Below, one piece after another: positions 9,404 to 40,479 of a DNA stretch of 46,184 bases. Position 1 is the stretch's first letter; every line of letters begins with the position of its first letter. Source of the DNA: Candidatus Woesearchaeota archaeon (GTDB lineage: Archaea > Nanobdellota > Nanobdellia > Pacearchaeales > UBA284); assembly GCA_964493265.1 (NCBI GenBank), contig CAZBLY010000002.1:43962-90145 (forward strand), in the 5' to 3' direction. The notes under the pieces were generated by a model. That model saw nothing but the letters and a program-made list of their open reading frames with translations. It did no database searches and had not been told where the DNA came from. The position numbers and the translations under genes are program-made.

Positions 9404-9416
9404 TTATTTTTCGTTT

Positions 9417-11940: not shown

Positions 11941-11999
11941 TTTGTTTATAAAACAATAAGAGAAAGACAATATTTAAAATTTCTTATTTTTGTTAATTC

Positions 12000-12179: not shown

Positions 12180-12196
12180 TTTATTTTTTATATATT

Positions 12197-12556: not shown

Positions 12557-12686
12557 TTTACCTCTTTTGGTTTTCTTTATTTATTTTAAAGGTATGTGCT
12601 GTTTTTAAAATTTTCTTTTATCTTTCTATCTTTATTTTTGTTATTTTATTCTTTTTTATTCTTTTTTTAATGCTTTTTACTCTTTT

Positions 12687-13304: not shown

Positions 13305-13305
13305 C

Positions 13306-16146: not shown

Positions 16147-16629
16147 ATGGCTGCAGAAACTTTTGTCATATTTACACATCCTTTTTTTACAAACATACTT
16201 CTACCTTTTTTATTGGTTTTTGTTGTTATTTATGCTATTCTTGAAAAAACCAGAGTTCTTGGCGAGGAAAAAAAATATGCTAATCTGATTGTTGCTATTA
16301 TTGTTGGGTTCATATTTATTGGAGTCCAATCTCTTGTTGGCTTCACACTCAGATTTATTCCTTTAATAGCCACTATGGTTATTATTTTATTAGGTTATTT
16401 TCTGGTTTTTGGTTTTATTGGGGTAAAACAAGAGGCCAAAGGGATGCAAATAACTCTTGGAATATTATTTGGATTAGCTATTTTAGCATCAATAGCTTGG
16501 TCCTTTGGGTTATTTGAAAAAATTCAATTAGGTAATATGAATAGCGATGTTATAGCTATGATAATTTTCTTTGTTATTTTTGGAGGAGCAATAGCTTTGG
16601 TATTAGCTACAGGTAAAAACCAAAAATAA
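16147..16629 (+). CDS. Multi-pass membrane protein, paralog 1 of a tandem trio
   Basis: Shared N-terminal motif LLPFLLVFVVIYAILEKTRVLGEEKK. 4-5 hydrophobic spans. Confidence 0.6.
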   Translation: MAAETFVIFTHPFFTNILLPFLLVFVVIYAILEKTRVLGEEKKYANLIVAIIVGFIFIGVQSLVGFTLRFIPLIATMVIILLGYFLVFGFIGVKQEAKGMQITLGILFGLAILASIAWSFGLFEKIQLGNMNSDVIAMIIFFVIFGGAIALVLATGKNQK

Positions 16630-16817
16630 AATAGAGATAAAATAGAGATAAAAAGAGATAAATAAAGAAAAATAAATAAAAAAAGAAATCAGATAAAATC
16701 AGATAAAAAGAAAAGTATATAAAACATAATTTTTTTAAATATAAGTAAGCATAAAAAATTAAATTAAAGGATAAAAAGATAAAAAAAGAGGAAAAAACAA
16801 AATAAATAAATTAAAAA

Positions 16818-17363
16818 ATGGCTAATTATTATCCAAGTTATGCTTGGAACAGTCTTTATGGAATAATACAACAATGGGAAGCTTTTGGTGTTTTTACTGT
16901 TCTTCTGCCTTTGGTTTTAGTTTTTACTATTGTTTTTGCAATACTTGAAAAAATAAATCTTTTTCATAATCGTGGAGTAAATTTACTTATTGCTTTAGTT
17001 ATCGGATTTTTTACTGTAAGCAACCCTTATGTTGGGGCTTTTTTTATGAATTTTTTTGCTAATATAGGAATTGGCATAGCTATAATTATTGGCCTAGTTG
17101 TTTTATTAGGTGTGTCATTAAAACCAGATACTGATTCATGGAGATGGATTTTTAGCATATTTGGCGGGGTTATATTTTTAGTTGTTCTTGCTCGTTCAGG
17201 AGTTTTTGAAACAGTTGTAGGAAATAATTTTTGGTATTGGTTCCAAGCTAATAGTGCCATAGTTATAATTTTCATATTTGTTGGTTTAATGGTTGCAGCT
17301 GTTTTAATAGGGTCTATAGCAGCTCAGAAAAAATCAAATATTCAAATTCCAATGGGGAGATAG
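16818..17363 (+). CDS. Multi-pass membrane protein, paralog 2
   Basis: Motif LLPLVLVFTIVFAILEKINLFHNRG. Hydrophobic throughout. Confidence 0.6.
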   Translation: MANYYPSYAWNSLYGIIQQWEAFGVFTVLLPLVLVFTIVFAILEKINLFHNRGVNLLIALVIGFFTVSNPYVGAFFMNFFANIGIGIAIIIGLVVLLGVSLKPDTDSWRWIFSIFGGVIFLVVLARSGVFETVVGNNFWYWFQANSAIVIIFIFVGLMVAAVLIGSIAAQKKSNIQIPMGR

Positions 17364-17377
17364 ATTAAAAATAAAAA

Positions 17378-17857
17378 ATGGTAGCAATAGATTTAACAGG
17401 AATTTCATCTTTTATTCCTGTTTTTGGTTTCTTACTAATTTTTGTAGTTACTTATGCTCTTTTAGGTAAGACACAAGCTTTAGGAGAAAACAAGTTTGTT
17501 CATATTTTTGTTTCATTTGCAATATCTATAATTTTTCTTGTTTCAGCAAATGCTGTAAATTATGTTAAAATAATTGCTCCCTGGTTTGCTGCTTTTATTG
17601 TTTCCTTATTATTTATTGTTCTTCTTGTTGGATTAATTAAAAAAGATATTGATACTTTTTTCAACCCACGTTTTGCTTGGGTTTTAGTAGCAGCATTAAT
17701 TATTGTTTTTATTGTTTCAGCAATTTTTGTTTTTGGCGATCTTCTTAGCAAATATTTCGCAGGACCAAAAACTTTTTTAATGCAACCACAAATAATCGGT
17801 ATTATTGTCCTTTTAGGAATAACAGTATTTGCCGCATGGCTTCTAACAAGGAAATAA
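17378..17857 (+). CDS. Multi-pass membrane protein, paralog 3
   Basis: Motif FGFLLIFVVTYALLGKTQALGENKF. Hydrophobic throughout. Confidence 0.6.
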   Translation: MVAIDLTGISSFIPVFGFLLIFVVTYALLGKTQALGENKFVHIFVSFAISIIFLVSANAVNYVKIIAPWFAAFIVSLLFIVLLVGLIKKDIDTFFNPRFAWVLVAALIIVFIVSAIFVFGDLLSKYFAGPKTFLMQPQIIGIIVLLGITVFAAWLLTRK

Positions 17858-17943: not shown

Positions 17944-18513
17944 ATGAATAAGAAATTTTTGTTGATATTTGTAATTGCAACATTTATGTGCTTTTTTATT
18001 CTAAATTCTCAAGTAAAGGCAGACTGCATCGGAGCAACAACAAATTTTACTTGCGGAGATACTGTAACTGAATCTTGCACATTAAATCAATCAGAACCTG
18101 AACATAATGATAGCTGTTTTATAATAAATGCCAATGATACAATTATAGATTGTAATGGTTATAATTTAACAGGAAATGGAAGTATTGATTCTTCTGGAAA
18201 AGGTTTTATAGGAACAAACCTTGATAATGTAACAATAAAAGATTGTATTATTGTTGATTTTGATTATGGTATATGGATTAATTATTCCACCCACTTAATA
18301 ATCTATAATAATACTCTTACTTCTAACCAATATGGCGGAATTGGTTTGAATGCTACTAGTTATAGTAATTTATCAAGTAATATTGCTAGCCAAAATAGAC
18401 TCTATTCTTTTTATATAGGATACAATTCTTCTCATAATTTTATTTATAACAATCTGTTTAATTCTTCACAACTTGTTGGAGGGGGGGCCAATGGCAGGTC
18501 TTTTTGCTCTTAA
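17944..18513 (+). CDS. Secreted parallel beta-helix (PbH1/NosD-like) repeat protein, N-terminal fragment ending just after a G7 tract
   Basis: Signal peptide MNKKFLLIFVIATFMCFFILNSQVKA. Repeats such as IIYNNTLTSNQYGGIGLNATSYSNLSSNIASQN. The frame terminates 24 nt after the G run. Confidence 0.6.
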   Translation: MNKKFLLIFVIATFMCFFILNSQVKADCIGATTNFTCGDTVTESCTLNQSEPEHNDSCFIINANDTIIDCNGYNLTGNGSIDSSGKGFIGTNLDNVTIKDCIIVDFDYGIWINYSTHLIIYNNTLTSNQYGGIGLNATSYSNLSSNIASQNRLYSFYIGYNSSHNFIYNNLFNSSQLVGGGANGRSFCS

Positions 18514-20419
18514 AGAATTTAATTATAATAATATAACACAAAATATAGCAACATACAATGAAGATATTGGAATAAGAATATTAAATGGTTCACATAATAC
18601 AATTTCGTATAATAATATCGGCCATAATTGTAATGGTTTAATTATTAGAACTTATTCATATAATAATACTATCACAAATAATCACCTGGAATATAATGGT
18701 GTGGGAACTTGTGGCGCTGCACCATCTCTTAATCTTTATGATTATGCACAAAACAATATCGTTGAGAATAATGTAATTAAATCAAACTCAGACTCGGGAA
18801 TTACTATATATCAAGTATCTAATAGTAATTTAATAAGAAATAATACATTAACAAATAATACAGAAGGAATTAATATTGGGGGGACTTTTACAAGTTCATC
18901 TTATAATAAGATTTTCAATAATATTATCAATAAATGTAATGATGGAGTCATTTTTGGTTATGGATGGTATAATGTTGTGAAGAACAACACAATTAATAAT
19001 TCTAAGAATTATGGTATATCTATTTCTAATTTTGCATTTGAAAATTTAGTTTGGAATAGTTGGATAATAAATTCAACAACAAAAGATGTCTATATTCTAG
19101 GCACAACAAATCCAAATATTACTTTTCTTAATGTTTCCTTCAACAATAGCCATGTTCAACTTCAACATGGAAAGCTGTCTATTAAATGGTATCTAGATGC
19201 TTATGTTAATTATTCTGATGGAAATCCAGTTTCTGGAGCTTATGTAACAGCCTATATAGATGATTATTGTGAGGGTGTTGCTGATGCTTGTAGCGATTTT
19301 AAATTTTTTCCATATGGTTGTGAAGAACATTATGGATGCACGTGGAATGATCCTTTGTGTCAAGGGACAGCCATTCCATGTAGTAATATCGCAAATTCTT
19401 CAGGTTGCAATCAACAACATGGCTGTTCTTGGACCTCCCCAGATATAATTAATGTAACAACTAATTCTTCTGGTTATATTCAAAGACAAAATATTACAGA
19501 ATATTATGATACTTCTTATGGTAAAGTATATTTAACAAACTATTCCATCAATGCAAGCATAAATCCACATTCTGAAACAGAATCCGTTAATTTAACAACA
19601 AATAAAATAATAGATGATAATACGGAAATAGTTTTGACAATCACAGAAGAGCCAACAACCCTCACAGCAATCTACCAACCATCACTTTACACAAACACCT
19701 ATTTTAATATTAGGGCAAATTATTCAACAACATCAGGAACTCCAATCAGCGGAGCAACTTGCAACCTAACAATAATCCCAAGCTTAGATGGTGTTGCAGC
19801 ATCTTCTTTTTATGTTATGGGTTATAATTCAGGAACAGGACTTTATGAAACCCTCGGACTTGCAACATCGTTTGCAGATACATATTCAATTGTAATAGAA
19901 TGTGGAAAACAATATTATCAATTTCAATCAGGAGCAGGATCCTTCACTGTAAATGAACAGTCTGGTGGAGGTGGTGGAGGTGGTAGTAGTCCAGGACAAG
20001 AACCTGTTTGTGGAAATAAGATATGTGAAGAAGGAGAAACTTGTATTAATTGTCCAAATGACTGTGTTTGTGTTTGCGGAAATGATATTTGCGAGCCAGG
20101 AGAAACTTATAAAACATGTAATGAAGATTGTTGTGCTCCAGAAGGAATTCAAGTTAGTCCTCCTTATAATTGCTGTCCTGGTTTAATTTCTGTTTCAGAC
20201 TGCTTATTTGGACCCTGCCCTTTTTCAATTAGATATTGTATAAGATGCGGTGATGGTATTTGCAAAGAATATGAAACAATAAAAAATTGTCCAGAAGATT
20301 GCGGTGTTTGTAATTTTAATATTCCAATAAAAATAAGATTTGTTAAAGGAACTAGCGGCGGAGTTGTTCCTCAACAACCAACCCAACCAGAAGAACCTAG
20401 CCAGCCAGGATTAAGATAA
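18473..20419 (+). CDS. Parallel beta-helix repeat surface protein, C-terminal fragment with Cys-rich CGxxICExxE...C..DC repeats
   Basis: Beta-helix repeats continue immediately (NITQNIATYNEDIGIRILNGSHNTISYNNIGHN). Many N-x-S/T sequons, a G6SS linker and three Cys-rich repeats follow. The first ATG in this frame is at 18491; the track start is TTG. Confidence 0.6.
   Translation: MLEGGPMAGLFALKEFNYNNITQNIATYNEDIGIRILNGSHNTISYNNIGHNCNGLIIRTYSYNNTITNNHLEYNGVGTCGAAPSLNLYDYAQNNIVENNVIKSNSDSGITIYQVSNSNLIRNNTLTNNTEGINIGGTFTSSSYNKIFNNIINKCNDGVIFGYGWYNVVKNNTINNSKNYGISISNFAFENLVWNSWIINSTTKDVYILGTTNPNITFLNVSFNNSHVQLQHGKLSIKWYLDAYVNYSDGNPVSGAYVTAYIDDYCEGVADACSDFKFFPYGCEEHYGCTWNDPLCQGTAIPCSNIANSSGCNQQHGCSWTSPDIINVTTNSSGYIQRQNITEYYDTSYGKVYLTNYSINASINPHSETESVNLTTNKIIDDNTEIVLTITEEPTTLTAIYQPSLYTNTYFNIRANYSTTSGTPISGATCNLTIIPSLDGVAASSFYVMGYNSGTGLYETLGLATSFADTYSIVIECGKQYYQFQSGAGSFTVNEQSGGGGGGGSSPGQEPVCGNKICEEGETCINCPNDCVCVCGNDICEPGETYKTCNEDCCAPEGIQVSPPYNCCPGLISVSDCLFGPCPFSIRYCIRCGDGICKEYETIKNCPEDCGVCNFNIPIKIRFVKGTSGGVVPQQPTQPEEPSQPGLR
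18481..18487 (+). repeat. Homopolymeric G7 tract at the junction of the two beta-helix ORFs
   Basis: The sequence ttggaGGGGGGGccaatg lies in an otherwise AT-rich gene. Removing one G joins the two frames. Confidence 0.9.
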
Positions 20420-21801: not shown

Positions 21802-21922
21802 ATTAAAATCAAGAGTAAGGAATTTATAAAACTTTATAGTAATCTAAATATTTAAAAGGAAAGAGTCTGTTATTTATTGGTTAAAGTTGAAAGAGGTAAA
21901 TAAAACAAATAAAACAAATAAA

Positions 21923-22825
21923 ATGAAATTAAAACAGAATATATTTTTATTTGTATTTTTAATATTTGTTTTAAGTTTTTTAATTAATATTCCAAAAGTT
22001 ATGGCTATTGAAGGGGTTTTTCATCTTGATATCACATTATTAAATCAAGACCCATATCCTGCTGAACCAAATAGTTATGTTGATTTAGTTTTTCAAATTG
22101 AGAATAATGGGGATAGAATAGCGCAAGACACCATGGTTGAGCTTATTTTAGATTATCCTTTTTCTTTAGATGCTGGAACTAGTTCAATTCAAAGTATAGG
22201 AACAATAAGAATCATGCATATTGATGAAAAGCCTATTTTAGTTAAATATAAAGTGAAAGTTGACAAAGATGCTCTTGACGGAGATAATGAAATTATATTA
22301 CATTATACGTGCAATACAGGAGGAACATGGAGCAGTTATAATGAAGAAAAATTTAATATTAATATAGAAGAGTCAAAAACAGATTTTGATGTAGCAATAC
22401 AAGATTTTTCACCTTTAACAAATTCTTTAAGTTTGGCTATTGCAAACATAGGTAATAAAGATGCTAATTCTGTTACAATAGTTTTGCCTGAACAAGCCGC
22501 AATTGAGATTTTAGGTTCAAATAAAAATATTGTGGGGGGAATAGAAACAAATGACTATACTATAGCTTCTTTTAAAATTCTGCCTAAAAAAGACGATTCT
22601 TTAATTGTTCAAATATCTTATACTGATAACATAGGTATAAGAAGAGAGGTAGAAAAAACAGTTATGTTTAAATCTTCAACTTATGGTTTGGATGGAAAAA
22701 GCAGCAGCAAGAGTAATTTTAAAGCTATAATTTATGTTGTTATTGGAATAATAGGAATAATAATTATTTTTATTTTGTTCAGAATTCTAAAAAAGAAAAG
22801 AAGAAAAAAATCAAAAATAATTTAA
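21923..22825 (+). CDS. Secreted Ig-like/COG1361-type envelope protein with C-terminal membrane anchor
   Basis: Signal peptide MKLKQNIFLFVFLIFVLSFLINIPKVMA. LNQDPYPAEPNSYVDLVFQIENNGD is typical of the archaeal COG1361 'S-layer domain' family. C-terminal TM plus KKKRRKKSK tail. The track start at 21887 is TTG. Confidence 0.55.
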   Translation: MKLKQNIFLFVFLIFVLSFLINIPKVMAIEGVFHLDITLLNQDPYPAEPNSYVDLVFQIENNGDRIAQDTMVELILDYPFSLDAGTSSIQSIGTIRIMHIDEKPILVKYKVKVDKDALDGDNEIILHYTCNTGGTWSSYNEEKFNINIEESKTDFDVAIQDFSPLTNSLSLAIANIGNKDANSVTIVLPEQAAIEILGSNKNIVGGIETNDYTIASFKILPKKDDSLIVQISYTDNIGIRREVEKTVMFKSSTYGLDGKSSSKSNFKAIIYVVIGIIGIIIIFILFRILKKKRRKKSKII

Positions 22826-22867
22826 ATAATCTAGATAACAAATAATAAATAGTAATAAATTGATAAG

Positions 22868-24112
22868 ATGAAATTTAAAGATTCATTTAAATTTGCTTTA
22901 AATAATTTAACTACAAGAGGTTTAAGGAGTTGGTTAACTATTATTGGAATAATTATAGGTGTTGCAGCAATAGTTGCTATAGTTTCTGTTGGACAAGGAC
23001 TCCAAGGAACTATTCAAAATCAATTAAGTAGTTTAGGTAGTGATATTATTTATGTTTTACCTGGTTCTTCTCTTGAATATAGTTTTATGCAAAGTCTAGC
23101 TCCAGAACCTGGTAATTTAACAGAAAAAGATTTGAAACTAATAAAAATTGTAGAAGGAGTTCTTTATGTTGCTCCAGAAATAGTTGGAATGGTAGATATG
23201 GAATATTCGGGTAATACTAAAAATCTTTATCTTTTAGGTACTGATGAAAACTGGAAAAAAGTTAGAGAAAGTAGTGCCGGTCTTGAATCAGGAAGATTTT
23301 TAATGAAAGGCGACAAAAATGTTGTTGTTTTGGGTAATAAAATTGCAACAGATGCTTTTGATAAACCCATTTATATTGGTTCTCAAATAAAAATTGAGGG
23401 TGATTCTTTTAGAGTTATAGGAATTTTAGAAGAATTTGGCGGAATGGCTGGAATGGGTGAAGATAGTTATATTTTTGTAAGTCTTGAAGATGCAAAAGAA
23501 TATTCTTCATTTGGTTCTAATGAAGAAGAATATTATGCTATGGAAGTTAGGGTTGAATCTGAAAGAACTGAGGAAATTGCTGAAAAAATAAAACAACAAT
23601 TAATGATTTCAAGACATGTTAATGAAGAAAATATTAATTTTGGTATTATGACTCCAAAAATGATTTCATCAATAGTTAGTAATATACTTAATGCAATAAA
23701 TTTATTTTTATATGGGATTGCAGCAATTTCTCTTTTAGTTGGGGCTGTAGGAATTGCAAATACAATGTTTACTTCAGTTACAGAAAGAACTAGACAGATA
23801 GGAATTCTTAAAGCATTAGGTATGACAAATAAAGGGGTGATGAATCTTTTTCTTGTTGAATCTGCTTTAATTGGTTTTGTTGGAGGGATTCTTGGACTTT
23901 TCATAGGCTTTGTCATTTCTGGAATAATCGGGCAAGCAGCTACATTTATGTTAGCTACTACAATGATTGGTGGAGGATCATTAGTTTCTATAGGTCCTGG
24001 TTTAGTTATTTTTGCACTTTCATTTTCAGTTATAGTTGGAGTTATTTCAGGAATTTTTCCAGCTAGAAGAGCATCAAGACTTCAACCAGTAGAAGCTTTG
24101 AGATATGAATAA
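22868..24112 (+). CDS. ABC transporter permease, MacB/FtsX family
   Basis: N-terminal TM, large extracytoplasmic MacB-like domain, and a C-terminal FtsX 3-TM bundle (ERTRQIGILKALGMTNKGVMNLFLVESALIG). Confidence 0.85.
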   Translation: MKFKDSFKFALNNLTTRGLRSWLTIIGIIIGVAAIVAIVSVGQGLQGTIQNQLSSLGSDIIYVLPGSSLEYSFMQSLAPEPGNLTEKDLKLIKIVEGVLYVAPEIVGMVDMEYSGNTKNLYLLGTDENWKKVRESSAGLESGRFLMKGDKNVVVLGNKIATDAFDKPIYIGSQIKIEGDSFRVIGILEEFGGMAGMGEDSYIFVSLEDAKEYSSFGSNEEEYYAMEVRVESERTEEIAEKIKQQLMISRHVNEENINFGIMTPKMISSIVSNILNAINLFLYGIAAISLLVGAVGIANTMFTSVTERTRQIGILKALGMTNKGVMNLFLVESALIGFVGGILGLFIGFVISGIIGQAATFMLATTMIGGGSLVSIGPGLVIFALSFSVIVGVISGIFPARRASRLQPVEALRYE

Positions 24113-24138
24113 AATAAAAAAATATTCAAAAAAATAAA

Positions 24139-24867
24139 ATGAAAAACAAAAAATTCAAAAAAACAAAAAAAATCAAGAAAATCAAAAAAACAATAAAACC
24201 AAAAAAAGAAGCTTTGTCAGTAAAAGATTTGGCAAAAATTTATGAATTAGATGGTGTAAATGTAAAAGCCCTTAATGGGGTAACATTTAGCATTCCAAAA
24301 AATAAATTAACAATAATTATGGGGCATAGCGGTTCTGGGAAATCAACTCTTTTACATTTAATTGGTTGTTTAGATAAACCAAGCAGAGGAAAGGTGTTTT
24401 TAGGTGGTGTTGACACTTCTAAATTAACAGAGGATGAATTAGCTAGATTAAGAAATAAAAAAATTGGTTTTGTTTTTCAATTCTTTAATCTACACCCTTT
24501 ACTTACTGCTATAGAAAATGTTGAGTTGCCTTTAACAATAGCTAATGTATCAGGAATACAAAGAAGAAAAAAAGCTATGGAACTTCTTAGAATGGTTGAT
24601 TTAGAGAATAGGGCAGATCATCTACCAAATCAATTATCTGGTGGAGAACGGCAAAGAGTGGCTATAGCAAGATCTATGATTAATGAACCTTCGATTATTA
24701 TGGCTGATGAACCAACTGGAAATTTAGATACAAAATCAAGTAGCGAAATAATGAATACCCTAACAAAATTAAAAAAGAAAACCACAATTATCGTAGTGAC
24801 TCATGATCTGGAAATTACAGAAGATGCAGATAAAATTATAAAATTACGAGATGGAAAATTAGTTTGA
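24139..24867 (+). CDS. ABC transporter ATP-binding protein (MacB/LolD-type) with Lys-rich N-terminal extension
   Basis: Walker A GHSGSGKSTLL, Q-loop FVFQ, signature LSGGERQRVAIAR, Walker B IIMADEPTGNLD, H-loop VTHD. Confidence 0.9.
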   Translation: MKNKKFKKTKKIKKIKKTIKPKKEALSVKDLAKIYELDGVNVKALNGVTFSIPKNKLTIIMGHSGSGKSTLLHLIGCLDKPSRGKVFLGGVDTSKLTEDELARLRNKKIGFVFQFFNLHPLLTAIENVELPLTIANVSGIQRRKKAMELLRMVDLENRADHLPNQLSGGERQRVAIARSMINEPSIIMADEPTGNLDTKSSSEIMNTLTKLKKKTTIIVVTHDLEITEDADKIIKLRDGKLV

Positions 24868-30457: not shown

Positions 30458-32317
30458 ATGCAGAAGAAAGCACAAGTTACTCTTTTTATAATAATAGCTG
30501 TAATAGTGTTAGCTGCTGCTCTCTTCTCTTTCTTTTATTTTAGACAACCAATAATTAATATTCCTTCTGAAATCAGGCCAGTTGAAAATTATTTTATTGA
30601 TTGTGTTTCTGAGCACGTTAAAGAAGCTTCAAAAATAGCTGGAATGCAAGCTGGTTATTTAGAGATGCCAGAATTTGAAGCTGGTTCAGAACATATGCCG
30701 TTTTCATCTCGTTTGGATTTTCTTGGAATGGAAGTTCCTTATTGGTTTTATGTTTCTGGAAATAATTTGGCCAGAGAAAAAAGACCAGAAATTGTTGATA
30801 TTGAAAAGCAATTTTCAAATTATTTAACAAAAAAGATTCAAGAATGTAATCTTGATGATTTTGTTAATAAAGGTTATGAAATTGAAAAAGAAAATGAACC
30901 AGTTATTAGTGTTGATATAAAAGAAAATTCTATTGAGACCAATGTTTATTGGCCTTTTGTTATTAGTTTTGATGAAACCACATCCAGGATAAATGAACAT
31001 AAAGTTTCAACAAAATCTAATTTTGGCAGCTTATATGAAACAGCCAACACCATTTATGAAGCTGAACAGGATAAATATTTTTTAGATAATTATGCTCTTG
31101 ATGTTTTGAGATTATATGCTCCTAATACAGGTATTGAATTAAGTTGCGCTCCCAAAACCTGGTTAGTTTCTGAAATTAAAGATGAAATTAATCAAGCTCT
31201 TGAAGGCAATATTGGCGCTGTAAAAGTTTCTGGAAATTATTATAGATTAGCTAGTTCTGAAAACAAATATTTTGAAGTTGATGTTGGAAGAAAAATCAGT
31301 GAGAATGTTTATTTTCTTTATTCTAGAAATATGCCCCATATTTTTGAAGTCTGGCCTTCTGAAAATGATCTTATGATGGCTGAACCAATTGGAAATCAAC
31401 CCGGTCTTGGCTTGCTTGGAAGTATTGGTTTTTGTTATGTTCCTTATCATTTTATTTATGATTTAAAATTTCCTGTTATGGTTCAAATTATTGATGGGGA
31501 GAATATTTTTCAGTTTCCTGTTCTTATTATGATTGATAAAAACACTATAAGAAATGTTTCTGAAGTTGAAAGTGGGGAGGTTGTTTTTGATATTTGTGAC
31601 CATAAAACTCAACAAGCCACAATATTTACTTATGATGAAAATTCAGCCCCTCTAAAAGCAGATATTGGTTACAAGTGCTTTAATCAAATTTGTGATGTTG
31701 GAAAAACAACCCTTAAAGAGGGGAAAGCCTCTCTTACCACTTTATTACCTCAATGTTATAATGGATTTTTAATTGCCAAAGCGCCAGATTATATAACTTC
31801 AAAACTCCAAGTTTCAAGTACAGAGTCTTTTGTAACTAACATATTCTTAAATCCAATTCATACTTTTGATGTTGAAATTAATTTAGGCAGTAATGAAAAT
31901 GCTGTAATTAATTTTGTTTCAGATGATTATTCCACCACCTTATATTATCCAGAACAAAAAACAGTAACTTTAGCTGAAGGAACTTATGAAATTTCGGTTC
32001 AACTTTTTAAGGAATCATCTATCACTCTAGAAGCTCAAACTGTTGAAAAATGCATTAAAATTCCTGAAGGTGGTGTTGCTGGAATGTTTGGAGCAATGCA
32101 AGAACAGTGTTTTGATCTTGAAATTCCTGCAGAAAGTTTAACTAATGTACTTTTTGGCGGGGGCTCAACAGAATTTTCAGTTACAGAATCTGAATTATCT
32201 AGCAATTCAAAAATAAAAATCGATGTTCCTTCATTTGATGTTCCAAAAGATGTGCTTGAATTAACAGATATTTATAGTATTATTGAATTAAGTGAGGTTC
32301 AAATCAGTTTATCATAA
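30458..32317 (+). CDS. Envelope protein with pilin-like N terminus, 619 aa, no recognisable domain
   Basis: MQKKAQ|VTLFIIIAVIVLAAALFSFFYF. GAGG motif upstream (aaagaggcgcctcaaatg). Lies 41 nt upstream of the giant gene on the same strand. Confidence 0.6.
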   Translation: MQKKAQVTLFIIIAVIVLAAALFSFFYFRQPIINIPSEIRPVENYFIDCVSEHVKEASKIAGMQAGYLEMPEFEAGSEHMPFSSRLDFLGMEVPYWFYVSGNNLAREKRPEIVDIEKQFSNYLTKKIQECNLDDFVNKGYEIEKENEPVISVDIKENSIETNVYWPFVISFDETTSRINEHKVSTKSNFGSLYETANTIYEAEQDKYFLDNYALDVLRLYAPNTGIELSCAPKTWLVSEIKDEINQALEGNIGAVKVSGNYYRLASSENKYFEVDVGRKISENVYFLYSRNMPHIFEVWPSENDLMMAEPIGNQPGLGLLGSIGFCYVPYHFIYDLKFPVMVQIIDGENIFQFPVLIMIDKNTIRNVSEVESGEVVFDICDHKTQQATIFTYDENSAPLKADIGYKCFNQICDVGKTTLKEGKASLTTLLPQCYNGFLIAKAPDYITSKLQVSSTESFVTNIFLNPIHTFDVEINLGSNENAVINFVSDDYSTTLYYPEQKTVTLAEGTYEISVQLFKESSITLEAQTVEKCIKIPEGGVAGMFGAMQEQCFDLEIPAESLTNVLFGGGSTEFSVTESELSSNSKIKIDVPSFDVPKDVLELTDIYSIIELSEVQISLS

Positions 32318-32358: not shown

Positions 32359-35300
32359 ATGAAAATAGAAATTCAAATAAAAGAAAGAACAATGTTTTTA
32401 TTTGTAATAGGTTTTATTTTTATTTTAATGGCAATGATTTTGACTTCTGTTTTAATTTTAGCTGAAGAAACTCCTGGATTTAATCAACAAGTTCAATCAC
32501 AACCATATATTTATGAAAATGCACAAGCAAGTCCCTGGATGCAAGTTCCCTGGCAAGATAAATATTGTAATGAATCTGAAATGGGGATGGATTTTATTGT
32601 GGAAATTCCTCCTGATGCTTGTACTCCTGCAGTTGTTCGTTCTGATTTATTGGAAGAACAGGATGTTCCTGTTTTTTGTAGAATGACCGGAATCAAAATA
32701 AATCCTTTAATTCAAATCCCTTATATAAAAAGCATTGTTCCAACTGTTGAAGACAGATCTCCTGAAATTAATTATATTACTTTTCTTCCTGCTAGATATG
32801 CTTTGAGTTATTATGCTTCAAAAGATCAAAAACCAGCAAGTTTCCAAGGTGTTCCTAGTATGTCTAATCTAGGTTATCTTTTAATTGATTTAAAAAGCCA
32901 GCCAGTAGAAGAAAAGATGCCTGATAATGTTAGAGCAAATATTTCCTTGAAATTAAGATATGATGTTGGAAAAACTTATGGAATTAATGAACACCAATTT
33001 ATTCTTCCTTTATTGGGTAATGATGAATGGCAAAAAGAATATGAAAAATATAATTTTTGGCAAGGTAAGGGTTTTTTAAGATTAAATGAGATAACTGGTC
33101 CAAATACTGCTAAAGTTTCTGTCTATACTTCTGTTAATTCAATTCCAACCACCAAAGAAGTCCGTGTTGGTGTTGTTCCAGGAAAAGGAGATGAAATTAT
33201 GTTGCCTGGATTTTATTGTGGAGTTGGTGTTAACTTAAGATTAGATGAGATAACTGTTCCAAAAACAAGAGCAAGACTTATTGTAAATGGTGATGAGCTT
33301 TTGATAGGTGAAGGAGAAGAGATTCAAGATTCAGATTGTTATGTTGTTTCAATTATTCCATCCCTTTATTCTTATGGCGGGGATGTTAAAATTAGATGTG
33401 GTTCAAAAGATCCTCAATTTTTATCATTAGAAGATCTAGAAGCAAATATTGAAATAAGAGATGGTGCAGAAATAACATCAAAAAAAGTTGGTATTGGTGA
33501 TGATTTGGAATTAAGTAAAGATGTTGAAGGAATAAATCACGTTTATGTTGGGTTTATTGGAAAAGAACTTGCAAAAGATGGTTTAACTGATATTATGGTT
33601 TTATTTCAAAAAGAAAATGCAGATGCGCTTAATGAAAAATCAATAGAAAAAATTTCTAAAGTTATTCATGATTATGTTGAAGCAAAAAGACAGAAAGCAT
33701 TGAATGTGATGTCAGAAGGGATGTGGAAGACTGAAATAGAAAAAGAATTAATTAAGAAAAAACATTCTGAACTTAAAAAAACAAAAATTTATGTTGTGAA
33801 AAAAGGTGCAGGATATAAAGATATAAATGGGGCAAAATCTGAAGTTAAGTTGGTTTCTGTTGAAGGCCCTATGCAGGCAAAATATTCAAACGGGGTTGAG
33901 GCAGCTTATAAAGAAGCAATTGAACAATACAAAGATATTGCATATGGTTATTCAGAAACATATAATGAAGAAGGAACATATTATGGAATTAAAGCTTATG
34001 ATGAAGCAGTTAAATTAGCAGAATATATGCATAAAACCAATGATCAAGTTTCTTTGCTTCAAGAAATGATTAATAAATATTCTGATTCTGAAGAATATGA
34101 AGTAATAGAAGAGGTTGAACATGCAAGAGAAATATTAAGAAGAATAACAGCGGTTGGCGGAGATAATGTTAAACAATTTAAAAGTCAGGAAGGACTTTTT
34201 TTAATCCGGTTAGTTTCAATTGAAAAACCTTCTACAGAAATGCAATCTGCTGAAATAGAAGTTGATGGCGTAAGGAAAATTTATTCAATTTATACTGAAG
34301 TTAATGATTGGGAAATTATTAATATAGATGATGCCAGTATTATCCTTGAAAATAAAACAGGAAGTAAGGAAACAATAGTTAAAGGTTCTTGGAAATATTT
34401 AGATAAAAAGAAAATTTATCTTATTGATACAAAAATAAAAAGAGAGGTTAAAATAAGTGTTCTTCCATTTGAGAAAGAAAGAACAACCACAGTAAACTTC
34501 ACTGTCCAGATAGGAATTGAAAAAAGAGCTATTAAATTAAGTCCAGAAAAAACCAAAGACATGATTAGAAATTTAGATAATCTGATTTCTAAATTTGAAG
34601 GAATAAATAAAAATCTTGGCAATGTTGTAAGTTTTTGGAATAAAGCTTGTTATGTTGGGGCTGGTGCTTTATGGATCAAAAATTTTATAACAGGTTTAGG
34701 TGGAAAAGCAACTGCAAGAAAGATGGTTATGGATAAATGGTCTATTAAATGTTCTAATAAAGCTTATCAAAACCAGATAGGTGCAAAAAGTATTTCAGAT
34801 TGTTATAGGAAAAAAGAAACTGCTATAAATGATGATATAGAAATTATGCAGAATTCTTTGAATGGTGCTAATGATTTTATTAAAGATGTTAAAAAACAAG
34901 ATGGTGTTATGGTAAGTGGTGGTTTATTGGGTTTGGATAAGACACCTAATGAAAAAAAATTCATGGAAGTTGCTCAAGAAAATTTTCCTCAAGAACTTCG
35001 AGATATAAAAATAATAGGTAAGGATGGTCAAGAAATAGATTCATCAGAAATCATAGACAATATAACTAGTTTAAATAATCAAGGTTATATTTTTAAGGAC
35101 GATGTCAAAGATCTTCACTTAAGACTTGATTTATATAAAAATTGTCAAGGCAATCCAGATTCTGTTTTATGTGGTTCTGTTTTGGAAGGAACTTATGGAC
35201 AATTAGATTATTTCACCGAGAGTCTTGAAAATGTTGAAACAAAAAGTGCTTATAACTCTCTTTTTGGTCATAATCCTGTGGTTGTAAGAGAAAAAGATAT

Positions 35301-38300
35301 GCAAATAATCCCAGCCCCTCTTTATGTTGTTAATGATGCTTTTATTAGTAAATTTGAACAAGGAAGTCGAAATATAATGTTTGACAATAAGGGTTTTAGA
35401 TATGCTGAATTTAATTTTGAAAGTACTTATTATATTGCAATACTTGCTTCTCAAGGTGATGGAATTTTTAGTATTGAAAAACTTTATGAAATTGATAAGG
35501 AAAAATTGCTAAATAATAAAGGAATTATTAAAGAAAGATATGAAAAAGAAGAATTGGTTCCTCAACTAAAATTAATGAAGATAGCAGATGTCCAAGAAAT
35601 AGATATTACTTTATGTAATAATAATATGATTTCAAGAGGTTTAGATGATGGCGAGCCTTGGAATACTGTAAAGTTCTGGGAGTCTGGCCCTTATAAAGGT
35701 CTTGTAGCTTATCTACCTCTAAGAAAAAATGATGGTTGGTATATGGCAACAACATCTTATACAGGAATGGAAGGTGCTATGACTGCTTATAAAGAATCAG
35801 GAAATATTAACACTTTTTATATTTGTAATGTTGGACAGGATGGAATCCCTAATTTTGATTTTTTAAGCGGGCAAAAAGGAGATGATTGTTGTACTTTAGT
35901 TTCAGCTGTTCAGGGAATTCAAAATTTAGAAATTGCTCCATTAAATGCTGCTGGCTCTAAGGCAGTTCATCAAGAAGCTATAAAATGTGCTTCAGAAGCA
36001 AGTAGACAATTTTTACAAGGCAGCAGAAAAATTTCTACTTCATGTGTAAGAACTTTGGTTCATGGAAAACCCCCAAGTTCTAGAGCAACAGTAGAATGTG
36101 AAGATTTTATGTCTCCAAGTGATTGTTGGAAAATGTTCAATTTATGCGATCCTGTAATGTGTCCTCCATCAAGATGTGATTTTGGCGGAAGAATGCCGGT
36201 AAGTAATGTTGTTCAATCAGGAGTTATTGGCTCATTATTATTATGCTGGCCTAATTTTGAAGGCGGCAGGGGTGTTTTAGTTCCAATATGTTTGACAGGA
36301 GTTCATGCCGGTCTTGAGAGTTTTACAGGGGTTCTTAAGTCTGGAAGAGATTGTTTACAAGAACAATTAGATACTGGAAGAACAATAGGGATATGTGATC
36401 AGATTATGTCTGTTTATATGTGTGAATTTTTTTGGCGTCAGTTTGATCCTTTTATAAAAGCTGGATTGCCTGCAATAACAGAATCTCTAATGAATAGAGG
36501 TGGGGGAGAATATGCTTTATTTAGTGATTCATGGAAACAATCTATAGAAGGTGTTAATTACTTTACAGACTTTTATGGTAAAAATCAAATACAGGCTTTC
36601 AAAGCAAGGTCAACAGCTCAGATTGGAAGTGAAATTTGTAAAAAGTTTGTTTCAGTTGCATATCCAACCCAGGCAAAATTCTGGGATGAATTATCTGAAC
36701 CAGAAAGTCCTACACAGGTAACAGCATGGTTTGATGAAATTGCTGTTGGTGGTCCAAGTCCTGAAGGCCATTATAAAGTTTTTTCTTATATTTGGGCTGG
36801 CAAGGATCAAGGAGTTTATTATTCTGTTTATCTAACAAACCCTTCAACAACCGGTGGTTATTATCAAACACCTGAATATTATCCTGTTCCAAAAGCTTCT
36901 GGTTATCTTAAAGCAGGGGAATATATAAGCATTAGTCCGGATTTTAGAGCCCCAAGCGGTTATAAGGAAATTTGTGTTAATATTAATGGACAACCAATTT
37001 GTGGTTTCGGTCAGGCTACAACAGATTTTGCATTAAAAGAATTACAAAATCTTTATATTGAAAGTCAGGCAACAGATGATATTAAGACAGCTAAAGAATG
37101 TGTTTCTGGAAAGCCAACAATTATTCCAACTGCTACTTTAAATATTCAATCTGCTGTAGAACATTCTTTAGAACCTAGCATCTATAAAAAAGGCATTATC
37201 AGAATTTGCAGCAAATTAAATCCAGGAACAGGAACAGGAAAATCAAATTGGAAAAATATTGGATATTGTGATAATCCTGATGTTGGTTGTTGGTTAGATA
37301 CAAATAGTGTTGAAGGGGCTGTTTCTGACCTTGGTATAAAAGAAGAAATTATGCAAGAAGCTGAATTTAAAGATATGCAGCACATGATTGACAAACTTGG
37401 ATATGATCATCCAGATGAGAGTAGAGCTAAAATAGATAAGATAAGAAAAAAAATTCCTGATGTTAAAGAATCAGCTGAAAGATTAATGGATGAAATAGAT
37501 AAAATCGAGAAAATAGAAGATTTGGAAAAACAAAAAACAACATATAATACTAAAGCGAAGATTATAGATAAAACTATTAGTTCTCTTATAGGGGAATTCC
37601 AGGACACACTTGCAACATGTGTGAATGAAGAAGAAAAAGTTAAAGCAGAATGGCATATTGCCGAACTATTTGATTTAAGAACAAAACTTCTTTCAAAATT
37701 AGAAGTAGCAATACTAGAAAAAGAACTTGAAAAACAAATTAAAGAAGAAGGAAGAATAACATGTACTTCTTTAGGTGGGCAGTGGAAAGATAAATGTTCA
37801 GATTTTGAAGACCAAATAACAAGTGATGTTGGTTCAAAAGATAGATTAGAACATCCTGGCAAGGTTTGTTGTAAAATGATAGAAGCTGAATTACCTTTCC
37901 AAGCATGGCCTTCTGATACTATGAAATATATTATTGATTGTAAATGGTCTTCAGGAATTATGAAAAGATCTCCAATAGAAATAACAATCAGAAGCCCTAT
38001 GAAACCAATTATTAAAAGATGGAATGAAGAAGAACTTTATGTGAGAGTTATAGGGAGAGGAGTAGTTCTTCTAGCTGCTGATAATGAAAAACCAGGTAAA
38101 AAATACGTTATAGTTAAACATGGAGATTCTCTTTATACTTATTATGGAAATCTTAAGGAAATTGTAGTAAAGAATGGCAAAGTTGTGAATGAAAACAATG
38201 TTATTGGATTGGCAACTTCTACTACTGTATTTCCTATCAAGAGGGCAGAATTTACATTTAGGGTTTTAACGCGCCCTTATCTTGATTTAGATCATGAAGA

Positions 38301-40479
38301 AGATCCAATGTGTTTTTTTAGCAAAGATTTAGTTAAAAAGATTCCATATGATTATTTTAATGCTCTTTGTTATTCAACGAAAATGGAAGAATATTATGAT
38401 TCTCAAGAATGTGTTGAGGCAAGACGAAAAGCAATTGTACAAACTGGAGAATATGAAGAGCCTATTGGACCTTTTCCCCTTCCACCTTATGGAGAACCAA
38501 TTGGGCCAGAACCATCAGAGGAACCAATTATTGCAACAAAAACATTACAAGAAGCAGTAATTGTTATTGATCCTGGTCATGGCACTTATATTAAAGATGG
38601 GAAGACAATATATGATCCTGGAACAGTTTGGCCTTTACCTCCAAAAGAAGCTGAGTTCACAGAAGAAGAAATTGTTTTATCTATTTCTAAAAAATTAAAA
38701 ACACTTTTAGAAAATCAAGGGGCTACAATATATATGACAAGAGAAGATAGCAAGACACCCAAAACAAAAGGTTCTACTTTAGCTAATGATAAAAATGCTG
38801 ATCTTCTTCTTTCAATTCATGTTAATGGAGGGGGTGGAGATGGAACCGAAATATGGATTCCATGTGGTGGCTGCGAATCACCAGAAGAAATAAGAGAAGG
38901 GTTTTATTATTGTAAAGTTGAAGATTTATGTGAAACTAACGAAAGAGAATTTTTAGAAAGCAAACAAGTTAGTGAATATATTCTTGAAAAAATAACTAGT
39001 GCTATAGGAACAAGAAAAAGAGATTGGAGTGAAGAAGGAATTGGTTATAGTTTAAGTTATGGTATTTTAAAAGTTGATGTGCCTGCCATGATAATTGAAA
39101 CAGCTTTCTTATCAGATGAACGGGAAAGAGCTATTTTAACAGATGCTGAAGGCCAACAAAAAATTGCTAATGCTGTTTCTGATAGTTTAGCTGAATATTA
39201 TGGAACAGCTGAAATTATGGAAAAAAAATGTTCTGAAATTACAGATCAAACAAATTGCGAGATTAAAAAAGAAGAATGTTGGTTTGATTCTGATGATTCT
39301 ATATGTAAAAGTTGTCCTCAACTTGTTAGACCAAATGCTGGATGTGAAGGAGCTCGCGAAGGATTTTTTGACTGGGGAAAAAGAAATATTTTATTTAATA
39401 ATCAAAAAGATTGTGAAGAAAATAATTGTGGGCTTGATTGTAAGTGGTTAAATAATGAATGTGTTTCAAGTTCAGTTGCTGCTGAACAAGAAATTGACCC
39501 AGAACTTGAACAATATCTTAATGAGTTTGCAATAGAGAATTTAAAAACAGAATCTGGAATATATATTTGGCAAGAAATAACCCCGTCAGATACTTTGGCT
39601 TTGATGGATGCAAAAGTGGAATTTCAAGAAGTAGAAAGTCAACTTGGTCAATTTGCTGAACAATATGAAATTCAAGGCAATGAATATGTTCTTAGTTGGG
39701 AGGAAAAATTAAATTATAAAATAGAAGAAATTAATGAAGATCTTAATTCACAAATGTCAGATGAATGGGATGATTTTGTTAAAGAAGATGCTGAAAAATT
39801 AATAACTGAGAAACATAAGGCTGATTGTGCTGATTTTGCTATTCAACTTCTTGCAGATTTTGCAGAAAGTCTTTGTACTGATCTTGATAGAAATTATGAA
39901 CTTAATGTTTATGGTTCTTCTGGAAATCTTATTATTGGTGATGCAAGCAAAATAAGAGACAGCGTAGGAACAAGAGGATTATTAGATGATAGAAGCACTG
40001 TTAGAGCAATAGATTTAGAATTTATTAGCATTCAAAATGATTTATTAGGATATCCTCAAAGAATAAAACAAGATTCTTATAATCCAAAGAATCTTGAACC
40101 AGGGGATATTTTGATTTATAGATGGCGTGATGTAGGCAACAACGTTGGTGGTTGGGATAGTGTTGTTTATGTAGATAAAAAATATGTTGGAAAATATATT
40201 CCTGAACAAAAAGAAATATGGCAACACATTCTTGGAAAAGGAAATCTCGTTAATGGACAAATTAGTGCGGTAGAATATAGAAAAACAGTTAATTTTGATA
40301 TAAAAAGAGATAATTGGGAAGATATAATAATTGATGATGATTATTTAGCAGAAAAAGGAACAGTGGCAGCTTCTACTTTTTCAAGACAATATGGGAAATA
40401 TAATTATTACTTTTTAGATGAAGATCTTTATGATATTAGAAGATGGAATTTTCCTGAAGTTGTTGTTTGTAAAGCTTAA
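32359..40479 (+). CDS. Giant membrane-anchored/secreted multidomain protein, 2706 aa, with LytM-like and Amidase_3 cell-wall hydrolase domains
   Basis: An uninterrupted 8.1 kb ORF in a stop-rich AT genome. N-terminal hydrophobic anchor FLFVIGFIFILMAMILTSVLILA. Domains are described in the entries below. Confidence 0.85.
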   Translation: MKIEIQIKERTMFLFVIGFIFILMAMILTSVLILAEETPGFNQQVQSQPYIYENAQASPWMQVPWQDKYCNESEMGMDFIVEIPPDACTPAVVRSDLLEEQDVPVFCRMTGIKINPLIQIPYIKSIVPTVEDRSPEINYITFLPARYALSYYASKDQKPASFQGVPSMSNLGYLLIDLKSQPVEEKMPDNVRANISLKLRYDVGKTYGINEHQFILPLLGNDEWQKEYEKYNFWQGKGFLRLNEITGPNTAKVSVYTSVNSIPTTKEVRVGVVPGKGDEIMLPGFYCGVGVNLRLDEITVPKTRARLIVNGDELLIGEGEEIQDSDCYVVSIIPSLYSYGGDVKIRCGSKDPQFLSLEDLEANIEIRDGAEITSKKVGIGDDLELSKDVEGINHVYVGFIGKELAKDGLTDIMVLFQKENADALNEKSIEKISKVIHDYVEAKRQKALNVMSEGMWKTEIEKELIKKKHSELKKTKIYVVKKGAGYKDINGAKSEVKLVSVEGPMQAKYSNGVEAAYKEAIEQYKDIAYGYSETYNEEGTYYGIKAYDEAVKLAEYMHKTNDQVSLLQEMINKYSDSEEYEVIEEVEHAREILRRITAVGGDNVKQFKSQEGLFLIRLVSIEKPSTEMQSAEIEVDGVRKIYSIYTEVNDWEIINIDDASIILENKTGSKETIVKGSWKYLDKKKIYLIDTKIKREVKISVLPFEKERTTTVNFTVQIGIEKRAIKLSPEKTKDMIRNLDNLISKFEGINKNLGNVVSFWNKACYVGAGALWIKNFITGLGGKATARKMVMDKWSIKCSNKAYQNQIGAKSISDCYRKKETAINDDIEIMQNSLNGANDFIKDVKKQDGVMVSGGLLGLDKTPNEKKFMEVAQENFPQELRDIKIIGKDGQEIDSSEIIDNITSLNNQGYIFKDDVKDLHLRLDLYKNCQGNPDSVLCGSVLEGTYGQLDYFTESLENVETKSAYNSLFGHNPVVVREKDMQIIPAPLYVVNDAFISKFEQGSRNIMFDNKGFRYAEFNFESTYYIAILASQGDGIFSIEKLYEIDKEKLLNNKGIIKERYEKEELVPQLKLMKIADVQEIDITLCNNNMISRGLDDGEPWNTVKFWESGPYKGLVAYLPLRKNDGWYMATTSYTGMEGAMTAYKESGNINTFYICNVGQDGIPNFDFLSGQKGDDCCTLVSAVQGIQNLEIAPLNAAGSKAVHQEAIKCASEASRQFLQGSRKISTSCVRTLVHGKPPSSRATVECEDFMSPSDCWKMFNLCDPVMCPPSRCDFGGRMPVSNVVQSGVIGSLLLCWPNFEGGRGVLVPICLTGVHAGLESFTGVLKSGRDCLQEQLDTGRTIGICDQIMSVYMCEFFWRQFDPFIKAGLPAITESLMNRGGGEYALFSDSWKQSIEGVNYFTDFYGKNQIQAFKARSTAQIGSEICKKFVSVAYPTQAKFWDELSEPESPTQVTAWFDEIAVGGPSPEGHYKVFSYIWAGKDQGVYYSVYLTNPSTTGGYYQTPEYYPVPKASGYLKAGEYISISPDFRAPSGYKEICVNINGQPICGFGQATTDFALKELQNLYIESQATDDIKTAKECVSGKPTIIPTATLNIQSAVEHSLEPSIYKKGIIRICSKLNPGTGTGKSNWKNIGYCDNPDVGCWLDTNSVEGAVSDLGIKEEIMQEAEFKDMQHMIDKLGYDHPDESRAKIDKIRKKIPDVKESAERLMDEIDKIEKIEDLEKQKTTYNTKAKIIDKTISSLIGEFQDTLATCVNEEEKVKAEWHIAELFDLRTKLLSKLEVAILEKELEKQIKEEGRITCTSLGGQWKDKCSDFEDQITSDVGSKDRLEHPGKVCCKMIEAELPFQAWPSDTMKYIIDCKWSSGIMKRSPIEITIRSPMKPIIKRWNEEELYVRVIGRGVVLLAADNEKPGKKYVIVKHGDSLYTYYGNLKEIVVKNGKVVNENNVIGLATSTTVFPIKRAEFTFRVLTRPYLDLDHEEDPMCFFSKDLVKKIPYDYFNALCYSTKMEEYYDSQECVEARRKAIVQTGEYEEPIGPFPLPPYGEPIGPEPSEEPIIATKTLQEAVIVIDPGHGTYIKDGKTIYDPGTVWPLPPKEAEFTEEEIVLSISKKLKTLLENQGATIYMTREDSKTPKTKGSTLANDKNADLLLSIHVNGGGGDGTEIWIPCGGCESPEEIREGFYYCKVEDLCETNEREFLESKQVSEYILEKITSAIGTRKRDWSEEGIGYSLSYGILKVDVPAMIIETAFLSDERERAILTDAEGQQKIANAVSDSLAEYYGTAEIMEKKCSEITDQTNCEIKKEECWFDSDDSICKSCPQLVRPNAGCEGAREGFFDWGKRNILFNNQKDCEENNCGLDCKWLNNECVSSSVAAEQEIDPELEQYLNEFAIENLKTESGIYIWQEITPSDTLALMDAKVEFQEVESQLGQFAEQYEIQGNEYVLSWEEKLNYKIEEINEDLNSQMSDEWDDFVKEDAEKLITEKHKADCADFAIQLLADFAESLCTDLDRNYELNVYGSSGNLIIGDASKIRDSVGTRGLLDDRSTVRAIDLEFISIQNDLLGYPQRIKQDSYNPKNLEPGDILIYRWRDVGNNVGGWDSVVYVDKKYVGKYIPEQKEIWQHILGKGNLVNGQISAVEYRKTVNFDIKRDNWEDIIIDDDYLAEKGTVAASTFSRQYGKYNYYFLDEDLYDIRRWNFPEVVVCKA
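37921..38270 (+). other. Degenerate LytM/M23-like domain within the giant protein (aa ~1855-1970)
   Basis: GKKYVIVKHGDSLYTYYGNLKEIVVKNGKVVNENNVIGLA follows the M23 core pattern (G.yv.i.H..g..t.Y.hl....V..G..V..G..IG). The metal-binding HxxxD is absent, and HxH is replaced (AEFTFRV where PHLHFEV-like is expected). Confidence 0.4.
38557..39204 (+). other. N-acetylmuramoyl-L-alanine amidase (Amidase_3) domain within the giant protein (aa ~2067-2282)
   Basis: VIVIDPGHG, EEEIVLSISKKLKTLLENQGATIYMTRED, ANDKNADLLLSIHVNGG, VPAMIIETAFLSDERE and QQKIANAVSDSLAEYY. All four canonical Zn/catalytic positions (H, E, H, E) appear to be present. Confidence 0.8.

Follow-up and report, generated by a model that had tools for sequence, protein, structure and literature searches.

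A stretch of archaeal DNA of 46,184 nucleotides (Candidatus Woesearchaeota archaeon, contig CAZBLY010000002.1, positions 43,962 to 90,145; hereafter the window) encodes a giant protein of 2,706 residues, stop codon included, which carries near its C-terminus an N-acetylmuramoyl-L-alanine (MurNAc-L-Ala) amidase domain of the Amidase_3 family with an intact set of zinc ligands and catalytic residue. The amidase is one module of an anchored giant, located beside a dead LytM module and encoded at a conserved locus, a context that goes beyond the preliminary description of this DNA. Anchored at the surface, the protein probably serves to breach or hold bacterial peptidoglycan; its wall-directed modules vary among relatives while its scaffold is shared.

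The Amidase_3 domain is matched by the Pfam profile PF01520 over positions 1–173 of 174 (hmmscan; E = 1.3e-31, 110.4 bits against a gathering cut-off of 27). The four sequence blocks that had been read by eye as those of the family are all present in the translation of 32359..40479, namely VIVIDPGHG (residues 2067–2075), EEEIVLSISKKL...GATIYMTRED (2102–2130), NADLLLSIHVNGG (2146–2158) and PAMIIETAFLSDE (2242–2254), and contain the zinc ligands H2074 (38578-38580), E2102 (38662-38664) and H2154 (38818-38820) as well as the catalytic residue E2247 (39097-39099). In a phmmer comparison with the sequences of the PDB, the His of DPGHG, the Glu of T-E-EE (after FT), the His of SIHVN and the Glu of IETAF align with the metal-binding and catalytic residues of AmiA (8c2o), AmiC (4bin), CwlD (7rag) and CwlV (1jwq), which confirms the ligand positions proposed by analogy with AmiC and CwlV. 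The same four columns are invariant in 82 of 82 Amidase_3 domains, the query included, in a MAFFT alignment of 11 domains from giant archaeal relatives and 71 other matches. The NCBIfam models for CwlD, AmiA, AmiB and AmiC all match the domain at scores well below their equivalog cut-offs, so that it is a member of the family and no orthologue of any named enzyme.

An AlphaFold2 model of the C-terminal part of the protein (residues 1840–2706) has a predicted local distance difference test score (pLDDT) of about 85–97 over the amidase, with the exception of a 26-residue insert, and its best Foldseek matches in the PDB are Amidase_3 structures only (CwlD, E = 9e-13; CwlV, template modeling (TM) score 0.86; AmiC2, TM 0.84). 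Fold (TM 0.78–0.86), His/Glu/His zinc site and catalytic Glu are those of CwlV, AmiC2 and CwlD (PDB 1jwq, 5emi, 7rag), to which the window amidase is just 21–24% identical in structural alignments; it differs from them in an extra β-hairpin after DPGHG, in the insert, which contains four cysteines and precedes the catalytic Glu, and in being embedded in a giant archaeal protein. The H/E/H/E residues are retained in 11 of 11 amidases of the giant family despite identities of only 27–41% among most of them, which argues for selection on catalysis. On the basis of the intact residues and the predicted fold, the domain is probably catalytically competent.

The four-cysteine insert follows the third zinc ligand and precedes the catalytic Glu, in the segment which in AmiA, AmiB and AmiC bears an autoinhibitory helix. 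This segment comprises 92 residues in the window protein and 61–116 in the other matches. The AlphaFold2 model, in which the insert appears as a small hairpin with a pLDDT of about 51, predicts no extra autoinhibitory helix of the AmiB type in the amidase.

The giant gene is genuinely archaeal. The G+C content is about 29% throughout the window, and the contig contains archaeal genes for LSM, S8e, S3Ae, TFB, a tRNA-splicing endonuclease, GINS51, RadA, RPA, SRP54 and FtsY; a tRNase-Z-like protein and four tRNAs are also encoded within the window. The genome context is that of a reduced organism of the DPANN type, specifically of the Pace-/Woesearchaeota type (Nanoarchaeota in GTDB). An artefact in which a bacterial or phage fragment had been joined to archaeal DNA during assembly or binning was considered and rejected, its probability being practically nil: the open reading frame (ORF) is single and uninterrupted, its G+C content and codon usage are native, the identical 2,706-residue protein occurs with identical neighbors at the same locus in three independent assemblies, and homologous amidase-bearing giants are also found in other archaeal metagenome-assembled genomes (MAGs). 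Archaeal neighbors, repeated assembly and native composition together exclude a chimera or contaminant for practical purposes. The earlier reading of an active-looking domain in an archaeal protein agrees with the intact residues, these neighbors and the three assemblies.

A search with the whole protein recovered 228 relatives, and all those listed are giants of 1.7–3.2 thousand residues whose named sources are Pacearchaeota, Nanoarchaeota or “archaeon”; one of them (P0006, from a Pacearchaeota archaeon) is labeled by NCBI as an “N-acetylmuramoyl-L-alanine amidase family protein”. The scaffold core alone (residues 1060–1780) has matches in 1,038 cluster representatives (clusters at 50% identity), of which 892 lie at E < 1e-30. 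Among contigs limited to one genome per species 28 loci were found, 27 of which are labeled Pacearchaeota, Woesearchaeota, Nanoarchaeota or “archaeon” and one “bacterium”. The last of these (L013, JAUUWR010000007.1, deposited as “MAG: bacterium isolate CSMAG_44”) encodes the giant scaffold next to archaeal LSM, S8e and TFB genes, and the record is probably mislabeled.

The surroundings of the gene are conserved across these loci. S8e and TFB are neighbors in 23 of the 28 each, LSM in 21, and the ORF of 619 residues immediately upstream of the giant gene (detected by tblastn) also in 21. These conserved housekeeping neighbors indicate that the giant gene is vertically inherited at a fixed locus and is not part of an island. 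The 619-residue product, which has an N-terminal hydrophobic anchor and 10 cysteines and matches no Pfam family, is likely to be a functional partner of the giant protein.

A BLAST map of the homologues shows that the scaffold is common to them and that the region beyond it is variable. According to precomputed Pfam domains in the best 120 of the 228 relatives, M23 occurs in 23, SLT in 22, Amidase_3 in 11, Glucosaminidase in three, NlpC/P60 and PF07759 in two each, and M10 and TPM in one each. In the closest relative (P0002; 57% identity) a dead M23 module is followed by a second M23 module, whose motifs are largely kept, and by a C-terminal domain as in the window protein; given this shared order of the flanking modules, the amidase occupies the slot of the second M23 of P0002. 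The nearest species-level locus (L004) also lacks an amidase, yet the flanking modules are present.

A neighbor-joining tree built on the scaffold core pairs the window protein with P0002 as its sister (bootstrap 100) and joins this pair to P0003-5 (bootstrap 94); P0002 and P0003-5 all lack an amidase. The amidase-bearing relatives (P0006-8, P0026, P0028, P0039-43) stand in at least four other places of the tree, intermingled with members that carry other modules. It is probable, as part of the interpretation preferred here, that hydrolase modules have been exchanged, gained and lost on a vertically inherited scaffold.

An insert of four or five cysteines is common to the amidases of the window protein, P0006-8, P0026 and P0041, and was found in only 1 of the 71 non-family matches, which is encoded on a 1-kb fragment. 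This distribution points to a common origin of the insert-bearing amidases inside the family, followed by loss or exchange, and the amidase module has probably moved within the archaeal protein family. A phylogeny of the domain had been proposed for tracing its source. The neighbor-joining tree built from the 82 domains is poorly resolved: it places the query with P0006-8/P0026 in at most 14 of 200 bootstrap replicates, and monophyly of the family amidases is neither supported nor rejected by it.

Acquisition from bacteria, for which the preliminary description had argued and which a deviating base composition might have betrayed, is not visible as an event. When searched alone, the amidase domain retrieves ordinary Amidase_3 proteins at 25–33% identity, two of the best of those outside the family being encoded in plainly bacterial contexts (beside PanB/FtsY and beside MutS/MiaB). 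The amidase segment does not differ from the rest of the gene in G+C content (0.330 vs. 0.316), in G+C content at third codon positions (0.115 vs. 0.142) or in codon usage (rank 10 of 51 equal-sized windows), and its insert is shared with the family. Recent horizontal transfer was rejected on account of this native composition and of outside matches which, at no more than 33% identity, are too distant to represent a donor. Amidase_3 domains are overwhelmingly bacterial or phage-borne, which makes an ultimately bacterial origin likely. Acquisition from bacteria can thus reasonably be inferred even though it has left no trace in the present sequence, and any such origin would be old in view of the low outside identity, the native composition and the family-shared insert.

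The amidase is accompanied by other modules in the C-terminal head of the protein (Table 1). The module upstream of it matches PF01551 in part (profile positions 16–76 of 96; E = 4.8e-9), and all five of its metal-binding and catalytic positions are substituted (I, N, N, R, E) in the family alignment, in which the lysostaphin reference sequence is approximate and the canonical motifs of the relative P0010 bear out the assignment of the columns. In comparison with TagE and ShyA, HxH is replaced by R-A-E and YAHL by YGNL, whereas H-D-H-H-D is retained in the M23 module of some relatives. With both the HxxxD and the HxH motifs lost, an active M23/LytM metallopeptidase is ruled out. Foldseek aligned the module with the LytM domain of EnvC (TM 0.72) and also with that of DipM.

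The combination resembles the bacterial pairs EnvC/NlpD and AmiA/B/C (PDB 8c0j, 4bh5, 8c2o), which likewise comprise long helices, a dead LytM domain and Amidase_3, here joined in one polypeptide; the C-terminal model matches both the LytM domain of EnvC and AmiA/AmiB in Foldseek searches. Unlike the amidases which act with EnvC, the window amidase has no predicted AmiB-type autoinhibitory helix, and unlike EnvC, a dead LytM of the window type also occurs in the amidase-less closest relative P0002 and so is no amidase-specific partner. Both differences weaken the proposal of a dedicated EnvC-like activator. By analogy, control of the amidase by the dead LytM may be retained as a minority possibility, and binding to or positioning on peptidoglycan is equally possible.

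Downstream of the amidase, the cysteine-rich module (motif CWWD...C..CP..CEG...DCE.N.C.L.C.W) has no match in Pfam and is present in many members of the family whichever hydrolase they carry, amidase or not. The C-terminal domain contains an invariant Cys in “DCADFA” and a “PGD-LIY” motif; the His expected in such a domain is an Asp in the window protein (GWDSVVYV) and is kept in P0018 and P0022. Sub-threshold Pfam matches (Peptidase_C93, E = 0.08; CHAP, E = 0.15; Amidase_6, E = 0.04) give weak hints of a papain/CHAP/NlpC-like fold. The domain is modeled at pLDDT < 40 and no match to it was obtained in PDB searches.

Table 1. Features of the giant gene and of its surroundings in the window (aa, amino acids; residue numbers refer to the giant protein).
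Feature	Coordinates	Strand	Basis
Giant ORF, 2,706 aa including the stop codon, carrying all modules	32359..40479	+	ORF list
Only strongly hydrophobic segment (aa ~12-34), signal anchor or signal peptide	32392..32460	+	Kyte-Doolittle scan
Conserved family scaffold, aa 1-~1780	32359..37698	+	BLAST map, invariant columns, AlphaFold2
Most conserved stretch of the family, aa ~1243-1442	36085-36684	+	Invariant columns
Degenerate M23/LytM module, aa 1840-2000 (Pfam stretch aa 1895-1956)	37876..38358	+	PF01551, alignments, Foldseek
Pro/Glu-rich linker (EEPIGPFPLPPYGEPIGPEPSEEP) between dead LytM and amidase	38449..38532	+	Sequence; pLDDT <50
Amidase_3 (MurNAc-L-Ala amidase) domain, aa 2068-2278	38560-39192	+	Pfam, alignments, AlphaFold2, Foldseek
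26-aa insert with C2170, C2173, C2185 and C2191	38863-38940	+	AlphaFold2, alignment
Cys-rich module, aa 2286-2400, ~10 Cys	39214..39558	+	Alignments
C-terminal domain, aa 2401-2705	39559..40476	+	Sub-threshold Pfam, alignment
619-aa ORF, ending 41 nt upstream of the giant gene	30458..32317	+	tblastn
CARDB-domain surface protein, then MacB/FtsX-type permease, then ABC ATPase	21887-24867	+	
Right-handed β-helix (NosD-like) protein, 648 aa, 34 Cys	18473-20419	+	
Three tandem paralogous small membrane proteins (160, 181 and 159 aa; ~5 hydrophobic segments each)	16147-17857	+	
Polytopic membrane protein, 719 aa	13512-15671	-	
Seven small ORFs in a run, each with one N-terminal hydrophobic segment (pilin-like)	8037-13316	-	
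T2SSE-type secretion/pilus ATPase, 766 aa	27-2327	-	

The single hydrophobic segment at the N-terminus and the 60 cysteines of the giant protein suggest that the approximately 2,670 residues which follow this segment are extracellular. Within the scaffold, the most conserved stretch, delimited by invariant columns in an alignment of 51 giant-family sequences, contains many invariant cysteines (motif CEDFMSP.DC...NLCDPV.CP.SRCD), is moderately hydrophobic and is modeled at pLDDT < 50 despite the 51 aligned sequences. AlphaFold2 predicts with confidence long helices that form a coiled-coil stalk at residues ~1658–1790, ahead of the LytM module. A stretch inside this stalk (residues 1689–1759; 37423-37635) is matched by the NCBIfam model for subunit B of the alpha-xenorhabdolysin binary toxin (E = 1e-4; 21.8 bits against a cut-off of 40), which probably reflects coiled-coil similarity only. 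Overlapping 500-residue segments of the scaffold gave no significant Pfam match at E ≤ 5, a profile of 30 full-length relatives found just a weak TPR/BamD-like match among PDB sequences (E = 0.005), and a model of residues 1100–1790 compared by Foldseek with the PDB and BFVD returned generic β-sandwich matches at E ≥ 0.002 only.

These features can be combined into a working model. The N-terminal hydrophobic segment would hold the giant protein in the archaeal membrane, or export it through that membrane, and the cysteine-rich scaffold of about 1,780 residues, ending in the helical stalk, would project outward the dead LytM, the amidase, the cysteine-rich module and the possibly papain-like domain. 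On reaching a neighboring bacterium, the amidase would strip stem peptides from the glycan strands of peptidoglycan, and the local opening or gripping of the wall could lead to attachment, to access to the cell or to the release of muropeptides and nutrients. Such a role would presumably depend on contact. The scaffold would be passed on vertically at its fixed locus, with wall-cutting modules that are swapped, acquired or lost. A bacterial wall as the target, which had been suggested for the amidase beforehand, stands as the most parsimonious substrate because other modules of the family (SLT, glucosaminidase, M23, NlpC/P60) are murein-specific.

Several observations weigh against this model. 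Seventy of the best 120 relatives have no recognized peptidoglycan-hydrolase domain. No LysM, SH3, SPOR, PG_binding or choline-binding domain was found in the whole protein or in separate segments at E ≤ 5. The scaffold has no recognizable fold, and only the anchor, the stalk-like helices and the module order speak for its projecting role. The four-cysteine insert, which falls in the segment between the motifs that is regulatory in AmiA/B/C, could render the enzyme latent.

Other roles have to be considered for a protein of this composition. The C-terminal modules could be cut off the scaffold and diffuse as a bacteriolytic enzyme in competition; archaeal peptidoglycan hydrolases are reported to kill bacteria (Strock et al., 2025; PMC12352652), the amidase follows a flexible linker rich in Pro, and the patchy, swappable modules form a pattern reminiscent of an arms race. 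We regard a released weapon of this kind as unlikely since the scaffold is conserved and the gene has a fixed locus beside housekeeping genes, unlike the patchy genes of the bacteriocin type, and since no target-recognition or wall-binding domain was found in Pfam searches and no processing site is known. A digestive role, by which free peptidoglycan debris would be degraded for amino acids and amino sugars, would suit the genome context of a reduced, metabolically poor archaeon of the DPANN type, and for Pacearchaeota it has been proposed that amino acids are drawn from the peptidoglycan of dead bacteria (PMC11537232). It is quite unlikely here, as an anchored scaffold of 2,700 residues would be a costly carrier for a digestive enzyme and no muropeptide transporter or catabolic genes were seen beside the giant gene.

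That the amidase fold serves only as an adhesin, binding peptidoglycan without cutting it like the adjacent dead LytM, is conceivable in a family which evidently tolerates non-catalytic hydrolase folds, given the clearly degenerate M23 next to it. The four catalytic and metal-binding residues are kept in the window protein and in 11 of 11 family amidases, unlike those of the fully substituted LytM, and this makes a purely adhesive role improbable. Bacterial Amidase_3 enzymes are mostly autolysins, and by this precedent the domain might remodel a murein-like or other glycopeptide polymer of the archaeon itself. MurNAc-L-Ala linkages are not known from archaea and the 46-kb window has no genes of murein synthesis. 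Few hydrolases occur in the producers of pseudomurein according to Strock et al. (PMC12352652), and a self-directed function is accordingly a highly improbable one. A surface-anchored tool acting on bacterial peptidoglycan remains the interpretation preferred here.

Proteins of this general kind have been described. Castelle et al. (2021; PMC8204110) reported giant SLT proteins of Pace-/Woesearchaeota (fam00969, earlier AR20 of Castelle, 2015), for which they proposed binding or degradation of bacterial walls, and Vigneron et al. (2022; PMC9723730) noted genes for a “large lytic murein transglycosylase” in Woesearchaeota. The killing of bacteria by archaeal peptidoglycan hydrolases, which are prominent in Nanoarchaeota, was shown by Strock et al. 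(2025; PMC12352652). The list of the latter authors includes “Woldo”, an M23 enzyme, and a protein of a Woesearchaeales MAG that combines LysM with Amidase_3 (PMC12352652). Members of fam00969 are likewise up to ~3,000 residues long, predicted to be extracellular, restricted to Pace-/Woesearchaeota and ascribed a role on bacterial walls (PMC8204110). The SLT domain that characterizes them is present in 22 of the 120 best relatives of the window protein. Unlike the SLT giants, the window protein gave no match to PF01464 (SLT) in a Pfam hmmscan and has Amidase_3, a dead LytM and a C-terminal domain unassigned to a family. The two families very probably correspond, a match made by description and not sequence by sequence.

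The hydrolases of Strock et al. are likewise archaeal and possess bacterial-type wall hydrolase domains with conserved catalytic residues, and the set was defined by a catalytic domain together with a recognized wall-binding domain (PMC12352652). The window protein differs in having no domain of the second kind, in its 2,706 residues and in being anchored. It would have been missed by that screen since it has no recognized wall-binding domain.

The arrangement also calls to mind toxins of the Rhs/CDI type, in which a large conserved N-terminal carrier bears exchangeable C-terminal enzymatic modules, and the giant “SPEARE” surface proteins of Nanohaloarchaeota, to which a role in contact with the host is ascribed. 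The comparison is one of design, with no known relationship in sequence or fold to either group. In contrast to both, the modules of the window family hydrolyze cell walls and are neither nucleases nor proteases, and their carrier is encoded by a lineage-wide gene at a single locus.

The possession by archaea of active hydrolases of bacterial walls is thus already published, and the present finding extends it and does not overturn it (PMC8204110, PMC9723730, PMC12352652). Within the available text of these three papers we did not encounter the variant with an amidase and a dead LytM, the exchange of modules on a vertically inherited scaffold, the fixed locus, the conserved 619-residue partner or the shared four-cysteine insert.

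A surface protein with murein-specific distal modules offers a rare direct molecular hint at bacterial partners or prey of the Pace-/Woesearchaeota, which rank with the most widespread archaea yet to be cultured. The fixed scaffold and locus, the 619-residue partner and the swapped modules turn the vague label of a “large SLT protein” into testable predictions on host range and module exchange, and the compact amidase domain (~230 residues, all catalytic residues intact) is suitable for expression and assay. We also advance, tentatively and as a possibility on which we would not yet rely, a broader view: the family might be a lineage-wide, contact-dependent “wall-breaching head” used by Pace-/Woesearchaeota on bacteria in episymbiosis or predation, with modules that track the chemistry of the host wall. 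If this were so, the type of module would predict the type of bacterial host, and the 619-residue neighbor and the fold-less cysteine-rich core would be parts of an undescribed archaeal machine for cell-cell interaction.

Several further genes of the window are listed in Table 1. The NosD-like β-helix protein is probably another secreted or surface protein, and the three tandem small membrane proteins were not assigned to a family. In Escherichia coli, Amidase_3 enzymes are activated by EnvC, a dead LytM protein driven by FtsEX; a functional link of the CARDB, permease and ATPase genes to the protein with dead LytM and amidase encoded 8 kb away is pure speculation. The T2SSE-type ATPase, the pilin-like ORFs and the polytopic membrane protein of 719 residues together resemble a locus for an archaeal type IV pilus, and a role of it in cell-cell contact is conceivable as well.

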